A stretch of DNA of 64,000 bases. It comes from a virus. Its lineage: Duplodnaviria; Heunggongvirae; Uroviricota; Caudoviricetes. Numbering within the stretch: the first letter of the stretch is position 1; every line of letters begins with the position of its first letter. Location of the stretch: the IMG/VR virus record IMGVR_UViG_2925891887_000001; one strand, written 5' to 3'. Under the pieces are notes generated by a model. That model saw only the letters and a list, made by a program, of their open reading frames with translations, was not told the origin of the DNA and searched no databases. Position numbers and translations under genes: made by a program. Below are positions 9,058 through 39,882 of this stretch, piece by piece.

Positions 9058-9701
9058 TGGATTACCGGATTGGGATCACTGGTGCTCAGGGCAGTGGGAA
9101 AACAACCCTGGCTAAATATATCGACAAACATTACGGAATCCCTTACGTGGATGCTGGTGTCGGAAGTTTGATGAGCCGCCTCGGTGTTCGAGTAGGTGAT
9201 TCTATGCCTCTATATGAGCGGCTTCAGATTCAAATGGAAATAGCAAAGCATATAGAGCTACTTACACGTGGTGTTGAAGGCTTTGTTATCGATCGCACAC
9301 CTGCTGATGTTATGGCCTACACGTTGGATTTGGTCGGCCATACCAATGAAGATCGGTGTATTGAGTTAGCCCTCGATATCGAAAAGTTTTGCCACAAAAC
9401 TGCTATTTCAAACTTTAACGCCATTGCTGGCTTACGCCCGGGAGTCGCTCTCTCAGAGCGAGATTACTTGCGATCACAACGAGCATCATTAGACCGTCTG
9501 TATGTCGCTCGTATTGATGCGTTGATGTGCGGGGAACTGACAAAAATTCACCTGCATCCGCAAAGGGGAGATCTGCAAACCTTCGTCGTTTCCAACCGGT
9601 ATCGCACAGTTGAAGCAAGAGCCAGATCAGTGATGAGAATGCTAGATAACGCTGTAGAAAAGATAGAAAACCGGTTCTGTGGCCGAGTGACCGTTCATTA
9701 G
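9057..9701 (+). CDS. P-loop NTPase (putative nucleotide kinase)
   Basis: Walker A GAQGSGKTT near N-terminus; start overlaps folA stop (TAATG). Confidence 0.45.
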   Translation: MDYRIGITGAQGSGKTTLAKYIDKHYGIPYVDAGVGSLMSRLGVRVGDSMPLYERLQIQMEIAKHIELLTRGVEGFVIDRTPADVMAYTLDLVGHTNEDRCIELALDIEKFCHKTAISNFNAIAGLRPGVALSERDYLRSQRASLDRLYVARIDALMCGELTKIHLHPQRGDLQTFVVSNRYRTVEARARSVMRMLDNAVEKIENRFCGRVTVH

Positions 9702-10191: not shown

Positions 10192-10749
10192 ATGACAACG
10201 ATTGTTGCAGGCATCGATATCGAGTCTACGGGACTGGATTTCCTTGCTGGTCATAAAATTATTGAAATCGCAATTACCCGCTATGAACTGGAGACACAGA
10301 GACATATTGATAGTCTGGAGATGCGTTTTAACCCTCGCAGAAACATAGATCCGAAAGCTCAAGCCGTTCATGGCATTTCATTGGAACAGCTCGCAGCTGA
10401 ACCTTTGTTGTCAAATCATGCCAGCGAAATTGGCGCTTATATGGGGGCATGTAGTGTGTGGGTTGCTCATAACGGCGAAGCATTTGATATACCATTTATT
10501 CGACACGAGTTTTCAGGGTATGGAGTAAGACTGCCAGAAGTTCCTGTTATAGATACTATGTTATCGGGATTTTGGGCCACAGAAGACGGAAAACGTCCCC
10601 GCCTTGAAGAGTTGGCCTTCTCTCTTGGCTTTATATACGATCATGCCAAAGCACATAGTGCCTTATATGACACAAACTTAATGATGCAATGCTTCTTTAA
10701 GGCACGTAATAAGTACGGATTTTTTAAATTACCCTCTGAAATTGTGTAA
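10192..10749 (+). CDS. DnaQ-like (DEDDh) 3'-5' exonuclease
   Basis: Exo I GIDIESTGLD, Exo II HNGEAFDIPF, Exo III HSALYDT. Confidence 0.7.
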   Translation: MTTIVAGIDIESTGLDFLAGHKIIEIAITRYELETQRHIDSLEMRFNPRRNIDPKAQAVHGISLEQLAAEPLLSNHASEIGAYMGACSVWVAHNGEAFDIPFIRHEFSGYGVRLPEVPVIDTMLSGFWATEDGKRPRLEELAFSLGFIYDHAKAHSALYDTNLMMQCFFKARNKYGFFKLPSEIV

Positions 10750-10907
10750 AACAAAAGCCTACTTTAAAAAGTTTAAAGTAGGCTTTCTTTTAAAGAACAG
10801 TCGCCTTTCAATCATTTCCTGCCTGTATTTAATACTTTTCCGCCTGATAGGTTTAGTCAAAATGCAGCCATCGAAATGCAAATGTAACCAAACAGAAGGA
10901 GACTTAC

Positions 10908-11900: not shown

Positions 11901-12494
11901 ATGATTGCAGCCGAAAAAATCAAACAGCGAAAGCGCGACAACTCTCTTCGTGACCTCTGGAGAACACCTGACTGGCTGTTTTCTGCCATTCAACGTTATC
12001 TTGGAGTGACATTTGATGTTGACGTTGCCTGCAACAAGGACAATGCAAAGCTGCCTAATTTCATAGGCGTTGAGCGTGATGCTTTGAAATCTGAATGGGG
12101 ACAGCCAGGTACAATTGCCTTCCTCAATCCACCCTACTCCAAAATCTACCCCTGGATTGATGCGGCTATACGTGAGCAGGCTCGCGGAGTTACAACAGTG
12201 ATGCTAATTCCTCAATCCCTCGATACAAAGTGGTATGAGCGTGCAACAGAGTGTGCGAATGAGACGATTATTCTGTCTGGTGGCCGCGTAGCGTTTGTCG
12301 AGCCTGACGTAAATCTGGGTCAGGTAGAAGTAAACATCAACCCAGGTGGCAGTATGCTCGTTGTTTTTCGAGGATTCTGTCAGGACGCTGGGCACTCTAT
12401 AAGCAAGATCCCTTTGGACGTCATGAAAAGTCTGGGAGGGTATGATCCTGCGAATGTGATCAGGAAAAAAAGACCATCAAAGAAGGCTGCTTAG
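11901..12494 (+). CDS. dam: DNA N6-adenine methyltransferase (phage Dam-type)
   Basis: 197 aa with catalytic NPPYS motif and phage Dam-like layout. Confidence 0.7.
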   Translation: MIAAEKIKQRKRDNSLRDLWRTPDWLFSAIQRYLGVTFDVDVACNKDNAKLPNFIGVERDALKSEWGQPGTIAFLNPPYSKIYPWIDAAIREQARGVTTVMLIPQSLDTKWYERATECANETIILSGGRVAFVEPDVNLGQVEVNINPGGSMLVVFRGFCQDAGHSISKIPLDVMKSLGGYDPANVIRKKRPSKKAA

Positions 12495-12500
12495 TTTGTT

Positions 12501-12600
12501 CTGGTGTCTGTAATTAGCCTGCTTCTGTATATATAAATAACTACATATTAATTATTAATATACGGAAGAAGGCTGTTTTGTATCAGAGACTCCAGACCTG
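12501..12600. repeat. nested inverted-repeat element R1 (copy of R2 at 39057-39154)
   Basis: gcctgcttctgtatatat ... atatacggaagaaggc arms around an AT-rich loop, outer ctggtgtctg/ccagacctg; about 75% identical to R2. Confidence 0.6.
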
Positions 12601-12679
12601 AACATCACTACAGAATCCACTAGAACCCCTTCCCAGACGCTTTAAAATCGATTTTATGAACCACTTTAAGGAAACCAAC

Positions 12680-12910: not shown

Positions 12911-13492
12911 TAGATAAGTACAAACTATTCATAAAGTGAATTGTAAGTGCTAAGATCTGATAGTTTCCAGTCGTAGACTGGAGACTCGACCTGATGGGTG
13001 GGGGTAAGCGTCACTGGCGTCAGGTTTAAAAAAGCTCACTACCAGCGTAGAACTGGTGCCGTTTAGGTGTCGGGGAAGGGGGAACCAAAGTGAGCAGAGA
13101 CAAGGGTCACTTTATGATTGTCGAGTCTGGGGTGTTTCGAGAGGTTGAATCCAGTACTCCCCTTCATAAAGTGTGGGAAGATCTCGGTTCTGGGGTGCTG
13201 TCATCCATAACTTCCCAAGTCTAAGCTGGCAGTAGACTTAGACCATAACTTTTCAGGTTATGAAACGACCAGGTTGGTGAGAGATTTTTATACTCACCTC
13301 CCTGGGAGAGTATTACCTGAAAAGACAACCTCTCACTTCGTTCGAGGTGAACTTCACTCACTTCGTTCGTTCAGTTCAGGTTTATAAAAACCTGTTCTGG
13401 GAAGTAATTTGTTTATTTTAATAATTATTAACACGCACGCGTGTGCGCACGCGCGAAGAAAAATCGGCGCGGCGCTTGATTCAGGAGTTTAT

Positions 13493-22952: not shown

Positions 22953-22967
22953 AAAACAATTTGTTTT
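22953..22967. promoter_or_regulatory. motif A palindrome AAAACAATTTGTTTT (second copy at 23002-23017)
   Basis: First phage-type element to the right of the host segment. Confidence 0.5.
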
Positions 22968-23030
22968 CTACCTTTTGTTGATTGAGATAATAAGCCACAT
23001 AAGAAAACAAATTGTTTCGGAGTGGTTGAA

Positions 23031-38787: not shown

Positions 38788-39054
38788 ATGACGTTAACCG
38801 ATAAACAAAAGGACATCATCAAAACGCTCAATCTCGGTTATGAGCGAGGTCATCTACTTGACCTGGACGAATTGCTTGAAGTTTTGCCGTACAAGACAAC
38901 CAAGCAAAGTATCCAGTTCTCAATTCGCGCTCTGATAAAAAAGGGGCTGGTGGAGAAAGGGCATACGCGCCAACGCAGTGACAATCGCTATCACCGCCGA
39001 ACTCTTGGGTTAACTACTTTAGGTCGAGCCAAAGCGAAGTTACTGGTGATGTAA
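38788..39054 (+). CDS. small putative winged-helix DNA-binding protein (88 aa)
   Basis: Basic helical protein; pattern only. Confidence 0.35.
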   Translation: MTLTDKQKDIIKTLNLGYERGHLLDLDELLEVLPYKTTKQSIQFSIRALIKKGLVEKGHTRQRSDNRYHRRTLGLTTLGRAKAKLLVM

Positions 39055-39056
39055 TC

Positions 39057-39154
39057 GGTCTGGGAGCTTATTTAAAGACCTGCTTCTGTATATATAAATA
39101 ATAAGTAACTTATTAAATATATACGGAAGCAGGCTTCGTAAGACATGCCAGACC
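39057..39154. repeat. nested inverted-repeat element R2, 95 bp upstream of terS
   Basis: gacctgcttctgtatatat ... atatatacggaagcaggc inside ggtctggg ... ccagacc. Confidence 0.6.
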
Positions 39155-39249
39155 TAATTAAACACCCCAGAAAACAAGTTGGTTAGCAGATGCAGTAAAC
39201 AAGTTGTTTTAGAGCGCATGGACGCGCTCTGTGTGTTTTAGAGGGATCT

Positions 39250-39882
39250 ATGACGGTCGAAAAAGACGAGGTAAAAACTCGCCTGACACCAGCGGAGTGG
39301 GCCGAAGCTGAAGCCAAATGGACGTCAGGCGAATATACACTCTCAAAGCTGGAGGAAGAGTACGGCATTCGTCGTGAAACACTCTCCAGACATTTCAAAA
39401 AGCGAGGATTAGAGAAAGGCGCGGACTCTGTTGGGAAGATGGTTCGTGAGTCTCTTAAATCTGACGCAGAGCTTCGCGCTAAAGCCCGTGCGGAAAAGAT
39501 AGAAGAACGTCGTACACGTTATGACGGCTGGGCGTATGCGTTGGGGCAGATGGTGATGGTCGAAGTCACTACGGCCAAACGTGAGGGTAAGCCTTTAGGG
39601 GCGATTGAGGATTCTCTCAAGAGCTTACAGAGAGCCAGTAATACCCTTGCAAAATGCTTTGAAGTTTCGTCCAAAGCATTGGGCATGGATCATGCGGAAA
39701 ATGACGAGGAAGAAATTCCGAACCTGGTATTTGGTGAGCTTACGCCTTCCCAGGTGGCGAAATTACGTCAGGAAGACGACGAGCCTGAAATCATCGATGA
39801 CGAATTGCTTGAGACGTTGGAAGAAGAAGCTCTAAGCGAATTTGATGCGACAGATGATGGAAGTGAAGGGGAGGACGAATAA
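39250..39882 (+). CDS. terminase small subunit (putative)
   Basis: Position immediately upstream of terL; N-terminal HTH-like region, very acidic C-terminus. Confidence 0.55.
   Translation: MTVEKDEVKTRLTPAEWAEAEAKWTSGEYTLSKLEEEYGIRRETLSRHFKKRGLEKGADSVGKMVRESLKSDAELRAKARAEKIEERRTRYDGWAYALGQMVMVEVTTAKREGKPLGAIEDSLKSLQRASNTLAKCFEVSSKALGMDHAENDEEEIPNLVFGELTPSQVAKLRQEDDEPEIIDDELLETLEEEALSEFDATDDGSEGEDE

Follow-up and report, generated by a model that had tools for sequence, protein, structure and literature searches.

Three copies of a ~100-nt palindrome in an SSU5-like phage-plasmid: candidate terminators or insulators at operon boundaries

Long palindromes between genes recall several well-described systems. 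Intrinsic (Rho-independent) and tandem terminators close co-directional blocks with a hairpin that has a GC-rich base and is followed by a U-run; ordinary terminators conserve structure; their sequence and loop are not kept from one host genus to another, and one copy's halves do not change together with those of the next. The RNase III hairpins of the phage T7 early mRNA and lambda sib are long intergenic hairpins with internal loops, on the transcribed strand of co-directional operons. The cos sites of lambda-like phages have a classical position shortly upstream of the small terminase gene, and in lambda itself a cosN of partial two-fold symmetry is combined with cosB repeats that lie between it and Nu1. 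Palindromic origins, such as oriS and oriL of herpes simplex, place inverted initiator sites around an AT-rich centre; phage SPP1 has two origins. Finally, the ERIC/IRU and Correia elements are imperfect intergenic palindromes of ~100-130 bp with terminal inverted repeats, and they can affect termination or RNA processing.

We analysed a 64,000-nt stretch of DNA (hereafter the window) in which a palindrome with features of all these systems lies just upstream of the small terminase gene, terS. The original prediction had described it as a nested inverted repeat, duplicated after dam, and had proposed either a packaging site or a bidirectional terminator or insulator. The feature is real and is larger than first noted: there are three copies, of ~100 nt each. 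In the literature searched we found no description of this palindrome family and nothing on the termini of SSU5-family genomes. We favour, with a probability of roughly 45%, the reading that the palindromes are a co-evolving, three-copy family of long-hairpin terminators or insulators that act on the + strand at operon boundaries.

The window region matches Escherichia phage CMS-2020a (CP053388, CP054387) at 99.5-99.6% identity and Cyrano at 99.5%, the latter in the part of the query that the start of the Cyrano record leaves in one piece; Cyrano is the pLF82 phage-plasmid of E. coli LF82. Identity to Salmonella phage SSU5 is ~80%. On these identities, the source of the window is an SSU5-like phage-plasmid. 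Such elements occur in ~5% of complete E. coli genomes, and Klebsiella, Salmonella and Yersinia commonly carry them too.

Anatomy of the palindromes and their neighbourhoods

The copy upstream of terS (39058-39154, + strand) lies between two operons. The last gene of the upstream operon (38788-39054, +; phrog_900) encodes an 88-aa protein, labelled "DNA-binding" in the Cyrano record, and its stop codon is 3 nt ahead of the outer arm of the palindrome. On the 3' side, terS (39250-39882, +; phrog_867) heads the packaging and structural operon and is followed by terL and then by the portal gene. The outer end of the palindrome is 95 nt before the terS ATG at 39250, the distance originally given.

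The predicted inverted repeat with an AT-rich loop is present: its inner arms, CCTGCTTCTGTATATAT (39079-39095) and ATATATACGGAAGCAGG (39117-39133), are 17 nt long and 94% complementary, with a single T/C mismatch, and they enclose a loop of 21 nt (39096-39116). The nesting also holds, because a second, 7-bp repeat, GGTCTGG (39058-39064) and CCAGACC (39148-39154), surrounds the first. Being self-complementary around 39107, the loop makes the entire 55-bp core a near-perfect palindrome. In the minimum-free-energy fold the two outer arms pair and form the base of the hairpin; as + strand RNA, the copy folds into one nearly continuous hairpin of ~100 nt (-48.4 kcal/mol, z -9.2), whose inner stem has CCUGC/GCAGG at its base. 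The right inner arm is the best-conserved part, and in the lineage of the window no T-run follows it. The number of TA units in the arms (39089-39095 and 39117-39123 in the window) differs between close relatives (sequences L010, L028, L031, L038 and L063 of our set); units are gained on one arm and lost on the other, a pattern consistent with (TA)n slippage.

Between this hairpin and terS lie two further kinds of element. Two dispersed palindromes, AGAAAACAAnTTGTTTT, probably the sites previously called motif A, occupy 39169-39210; they are of operator or promoter type and stand outside the hairpin family. They are followed by a small GC hairpin, AGAGCGC/GCGCTCT (39210-39231), and then by TGTGTGTTTT. 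This unit (39210-39241), predicted earlier as a GC hairpin near terS, resembles an intrinsic terminator, lies directly before the terS ribosome-binding site, and is the sole terminator-like match that a consensus scan returned near terS. It is conserved, with a compensatory change to GAGCAC/GTGCTC in relatives (compared in sequences L249 and L250, ~835-870). An Acinetobacter relative (L251) likewise has a GC hairpin followed by T8 directly before terS.

Motif A itself is a 15-17-bp palindrome found at ~13 intergenic sites in the window (4761, 14980, 15709, 16423, 19334 on the - strand, 22953, 23004, 26603, 27087, 27990, 28754, 39171 and 39196). Between 4.7 and 29 kb many start codons have it ~25 nt ahead of them, and a conserved TTAAACA/TTACGC-like element precedes it; its sites therefore look like operators or phage-specific promoters for many small early-type genes and for terS. 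Two of them (22954-22969 and 23002-23017), separated by 32 nt, make up a perfect inverted repeat of 16 nt ahead of the ORF at 23022. The earlier statement that motif A sites follow each palindrome holds, as far as it can be checked, for the terS copy, which has two AAAACAAGTTG-type palindromes at 39171 and 39196; after the dam copy a different palindrome, TAAAATCGATTTTA, is found (12643-12656).

The second copy stands, as reported, after dam (12516-12574), and its mean identity to the terS copy is 76% over ~200 aligned columns. The dam gene (11901-12494, +; PF05869) is the final gene of a long operon for nucleotide metabolism and replication, which ends at this copy; on the other side is a small ORF that precedes RNase H. 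The inner arms (12516-12532 and 12558-12574) are 17 nt long and 88% complementary around a 25-nt AT-rich loop. Immediately 3' of the right arm comes a T-run, GTTTTGTAT (12575-12583), which most lineages keep. Outer arms are seen in the fold as well: TCTGG.GTCT (12500-12509) pairs with AGAC.CCAGA (12587-12596), through 12500-12504/12592-12596 and 12506-12509/12587-12590. The + strand RNA of this copy has a folding energy of -32.9 kcal/mol (z -4.5). The two copies have in common an exact 23-mer, CCTGCTTCTGTATATATAAATAA, which starts at 12518 and 39079, on the + strand in both cases, and includes the left inner arm of the terS copy; a shuffle control produced such a match in 0 of 100 shuffles. 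Elsewhere in this part of the window, at 10749-10791, is a hairpin, AAACAAAAGCCTACTTTAAA/TTTAAAGTAGGCTTTCTTTT, with flanking A and T runs, which resembles a conventional two-way terminator; its presence suggests that the phage also uses ordinary terminators.

A scan of the CP053388 genome beyond the window revealed a third copy, at CP053388.1 28806-28860, which is also present in Cyrano and SSU5 (OV696614.1 ~31,160; NC_018843.1 ~33,460). It had escaped notice because the window does not reach it: it stands ~33.5 kb downstream of the terS copy and ~8.6 kb past the window's right end, at position 72,588 of a genome reconstructed from the window and CP053388. Over the 55-bp core, the third copy of CP053388 is 100% identical to the terS copy. 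It stands ~110 nt upstream of an operon with phrog_2500, a DnaB-like helicase and primase. Each genome thus carries three copies in one orientation, spaced by ~27, 33 and 45 kb, each 105-117 nt before the start of a + strand operon, and they follow the stop codons of the 88-aa gene, dam and CYRAN_30/SSU5_037, all on the same strand. The exception is found in CP053388-type genomes, where the third copy has a divergent gene as its upstream neighbour and the palindrome is intact. That divergent gene (CP053388.1 28972-29739; L264) is of the GIY-YIG (LEM-3-like) type and possibly encodes a homing endonuclease; Cyrano and SSU5 have a co-directional DUF2971 gene in its place.

Conservation and concerted change

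We compared the distinct sequences of the family at each position, upstream of terS (n=43), downstream of dam (n=63) and upstream of the helicase operon (n=62). The three positions are kept across E. coli, Salmonella and Klebsiella relatives. The 55-bp core, loop included, is far better conserved than the surrounding intergenic DNA, and its right half, that of the loop as well, better than its left. The element was found in 259 of 5426 E. coli genomes, at 1038 places on plasmids and 2 on a chromosome. In Y. pestis, pMT1 has a single copy, since the two places returned by BLAST are one palindrome. The divergent K. pneumoniae lineage (NZ_CP068974.1; L348, ~9640-9700) has a fourth module that resembles the right arm, CTATAGGAGCAAGGCT followed by TTTTAAAC, in the opposite orientation and just after an opposite-strand gene.

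At the third copy the two flanks behave differently. The left flank is hypervariable, with at least 12 upstream contexts that are joined right at the left arm, whereas the hairpin and the right flank stay constant across them. The third copy thus marks a hot spot of gene replacement.

Conservation of the pairing is less simple. Changes in the arms are often uncompensated (T.G, C.A, TxC and GxA mispairs are all common), and double-sided changes are few and mostly confined to the outer stem of one lineage; across the family the conserved form of the outer arms is GTCTGGGAG/CTCCCAGAC. Among the mispairs, T.G, which in + strand RNA is a G.U wobble, outnumbers C.A by 49 cells to 16; the third copy accounts for most of this bias, and the opposite holds in the dam copies, for which the - strand fold is more often the stabler one.

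The copies within one genome, in addition, evolve in concert. In a divergent lineage, with TerS 59% and Dam 72% identical, both the terS and the dam copies have ATATAGGAGCCAGGCT instead of ATATACGGAAGCAGGC; in SSU5, AAATACTAAGT is common to the terS and third copies. That divergent lineage has a left arm that is weak or relocated, or none at all, and classic terminators stand after its dam and third copies. Several lineages have TATAAATA or TTAAATA adjoining the right arm. Gene conversion among the three palindromes, together with the double constraint that pairing imposes, may explain the conservation of sequence and the concerted change; one could equally well invoke a factor that recognises the right half, for which the candidates are a protein on the DNA or the RNA, a promoter within the AT-rich interior or a protein that binds origins. 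A search of Rfam gave no match at the gathering score, only microRNA hairpin models below threshold, and the matches of an exact search with the arm of a distant relative were almost all due to chance.

Termination, packaging and control at the DNA level

We propose that RNA polymerase moving along the + strand transcribes each copy into RNA that would fold into a hairpin of 55-100 nt, clamped at its base by CCUGC/GCAGG, and that the U-run, where one follows, would release the transcript. The hairpins would keep read-through from upstream out of the replication block, the genes after dam and the packaging and structural block, and each downstream operon would start from a promoter of its own within the 105-117 nt that separate the hairpin from its first gene. 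The RNA folds of the terS and dam copies, with their GC-rich stem base, are much stabler than chance would give and are hairpins of the form expected of an intrinsic terminator; the promoter and terminator consensus scan misses the big hairpins because their loops exceed 8 nt.

The T-runs support this proposal unevenly. In the 9 nt after the 3' arm, the means are 5.4 T for the third copy (TCTTTT...), 4.6 for the dam copy and 2.9 for the terS copy in the lineage of the window, and the T-runs of the third and dam copies persist across lineages whose flanks are otherwise different. The tail of the terS copy, CTTCGTAAG, has about the T content that base composition alone would give, which counts against termination at the palindrome first reported. 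Members of the divergent lineage from K. oxytoca and K. pneumoniae are arranged the other way round: the big hairpin before terS has GTTTTTTTT or TCTCTTTTT after it, and no T-run accompanies the small GC one. Exactly one of the two hairpins before terS therefore has a T-run in each lineage. In the lineage of the window, the terS copy would accordingly be a variant without a U-run that is backed by a small GC terminator: having lost its U-run, it is probably a weak stop, or a hairpin for 3' stabilisation or processing, and the small hairpin with its U-run (39210-39241) would supply the stop before terS.

Published gene-level RNA-seq of the LF82 lysogen is consistent with termination at the third copy. 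In LB, CYRAN_28, CYRAN_29 and CYRAN_30 have values of 50, 89 and 55, and CYRAN_31 has 6; in other conditions the log2 values are 8.6-10.4 for CYRAN_28-30 and 2.6-4.2 for CYRAN_31 (PMC9928086 S1 Table). The third copy lies in the 193-nt gap between CYRAN_30 and CYRAN_31, across which expression thus drops ~9-fold in LB and more than 50-fold in the other conditions. Across the terS copy the same data give a modest fall, ~3-5-fold at counts near background, and across the dam copy none, both neighbouring genes lying close to background levels in the lysogen; these two comparisons say little. A 44-aa ORF that separates the dam copy from RNase H, CYRAN_81 (~13,090-13,225 in the window), is expressed ~12-fold over the lysogen background while its neighbours are silent (PMC9928086 S1 Table). 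We infer termination as the cause of the third-copy drop, and a like mode of action for the dam and terS copies.

These observations bear out in part the general role that the original prediction had suggested, in that hairpins stand at operon boundaries, T-runs follow the dam and third copies, and RNA levels fall at the third. They do not bear out its bidirectional part, as T-runs are confined to the + strand side and every copy has the same orientation. The excess of mispairs that become G.U wobbles in + strand RNA, and the few double-sided changes, also favour the terminator reading. A terminator that shields the downstream operon from inserted accessory genes would also be expected to stay constant beside a hypervariable upstream gene, as the third-copy hairpin does. 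Several findings count against termination: core and loop are conserved in sequence and arm changes go uncompensated, unlike in ordinary terminators; the right half co-evolves between copies in the divergent lineage, whose left arm is missing, displaced or weak; CP053388-type genomes keep the third palindrome intact next to a divergent upstream gene; the - strand fold is more often the stabler one in dam copies; and the gene-level RNA values fall only modestly at the terS copy and not at the dam copy. If the palindromes do insulate, they would help to explain how silent lytic replication and packaging genes lie beside expressed plasmid and accessory genes, and they may also explain the gene-replacement hot spot upstream of the helicase operon.

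The reading suggested by the position of the palindrome is that the terS copy is a cos or pac site, cut by terminase in or near the loop, with the AACAAGTTG repeats as TerS-binding sites and the other copies as uncut paralogues. We consider this unlikely, although the copy lies 95-143 nt upstream of terS, where packaging sites classically lie, its core has two-fold symmetry, and the linear record of SSU5, a phage isolate, starts at the equivalent of 39116 and ends one base before it, so that its ends join with no base lost or duplicated. A cos site would have a unique cleavage sequence and TerS-binding repeats of its own; here the core occurs three times, identical over 55 bp between the terS and third copies of CP053388, so that cutting at all of them would fragment the genome, and the AACAAGTTG repeats belong to the genome-wide family of ~13 intergenic palindromes rather than to terS. 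The record start is itself weakened as a hint of a DNA end, because two unrelated metagenome or isolate contigs, L280 and L284, start inside the third copy. These AT-rich palindromes tend to cause assembly breaks, of which these two starts, and the opening of NC_018843.1 and OV696614.1 in the loop of the terS copy, may be examples; among the IMG/VR contig ends, none falls in the terS or dam palindrome and these two in the third. The SSU5 record moreover has no terminal repeat and no missing overhang. TerL is 25-28% identical to its distant relatives (P74-26 TerL; Jersey-like phages), which is too weak to decide the mode of packaging; these relatives include headful packagers. The start of the Cyrano record, one base after that of SSU5 (39116/39117), adds no independent evidence, since it may have been set to match SSU5, and the description of Cyrano reports no mapping of termini (PMC9928086). 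A long terminal repeat bounded by two copies is likewise unlikely, as it would need ~135 kb of DNA in a head of 76 nm (head size: PMC9928086), and the start of the p4727 record near the dam copy is simply a start codon. The packaging-site proposal is thus not supported, and terminase might at most use the terS copy together with neighbouring determinants. A conspicuous palindrome beside terS, even where a reference record opens, is not in itself evidence of a packaging site.

It is possible, as a more tentative alternative, that the palindromes are sites at which a phage or host protein acts on the DNA, with the hairpin potential secondary: a promoter or activator site, a lytic origin, or a roadblock or operator. 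In the promoter variant, a phage-specific promoter would lie in the AT-rich interior and right arm, and transcripts begun in the loop would lack the left arm and so escape the hairpin; in the origin variant, inverted binding sites would surround an easily melted AT-rich centre. Conservation of sequence and not just of structure, stronger in the right half (TTATTAAATATATAC-GGAAGCAGGC) than in the left, is what such a site predicts, and the uncompensated arm changes, the concerted right module, the motif that adjoins the right arm in several lineages and the similar distance of all three copies from the downstream start codon point the same way. Concerted evolution can, however, also arise by gene conversion without a shared binding factor, and termination offers a simpler account of the conserved T-runs and of the drop in RNA at the third copy. 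The consensus scan gave no sigma-70-type promoter around terS, nor any at the dam copy that reads into the gene downstream, and the annotation of the parts of the Cyrano record examined lists neither a late sigma factor nor an initiator protein. What keeps an origin-type reading alive is the third copy directly upstream of the helicase-primase genes, together with the T4-like replication and recombination genes of the genome (UvsW, UvsY, a gp32-like SSB, RNase H and SbcCD-like). An AT-rich centre between inverted arms is compatible with an origin; GC skew is monotonic, dominated by gene orientation, and carries no information on origins. A narrower version, in which the palindromes are lytic control points in the DNA itself, either terminators with embedded promoters or cruciform-prone origins or programmed break sites, strikes us as doubtful. 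In its origin or break-site form, SbcCD-like and RuvC-like phage enzymes may process the palindromes and so start recombination-dependent replication from the circular plasmid prophage; in either form, the co-evolving right half would be the recognition sequence. Far less probable is a MITE-like element, a selfish palindromic repeat bounded by terminal inverted repeats, which would have spread to three intergenic sites and would serve no phage function. The 100-125-bp unit of outer repeats and inner palindrome in several copies, the variable TA-unit number and the recombination-prone boundary at the third copy would suit such a repeat, but relatives from E. coli, Salmonella and Klebsiella hold the same three positions, the terS and dam copies show no target-site duplication, the places in E. 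coli are almost only on phage-plasmids, and the core is more constrained than adjacent intergenic DNA. A centromere-like (parS-like) role was also considered and dropped: pMT1 keeps one copy only, and relies for partition on a separate system of the P1/P7 type.

Comparison with known systems

Like intrinsic and tandem terminators, the palindromes have a hairpin with a GC-rich base, a U-run in two of three copies, a place at the end of co-directional blocks and, in one case, a drop in expression. They differ in a much longer stem, with a 27-bp AT-rich upper part and ~100 nt when the outer stem is included, in their three near-identical copies whose sequence is conserved across host genera, and in the lack of a U-run at the terS copy. 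The T7 RNase III hairpins and lambda sib are similar in length, in their internal loops and in their place on the transcribed strand between co-directional genes; by comparison with these, the U-run after two of the palindromes would point to termination rather than to processing alone.

Lambda cos is matched by a symmetric site just upstream of the small terminase gene with repeats between the two, but the palindrome is not unique, the intervening repeats are dispersed, and the sequence carries no overhang signature. The palindromic origins of herpes simplex virus and SPP1 are alike in their GC-rich inverted arms, in an AT-rich centre (here 21-25 bp, or 35 with the TA runs), in the presence of several copies per genome and in the position of one beside helicase-primase genes; a T-run on one side and a common orientation to genes would be unexpected in such origins. 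ERIC/IRU and Correia elements, finally, share the size, the terminal inverted repeats and the imperfect intergenic palindrome, whereas the family described here keeps to only three fixed positions, in one phage-plasmid family, and has no target-site duplication.
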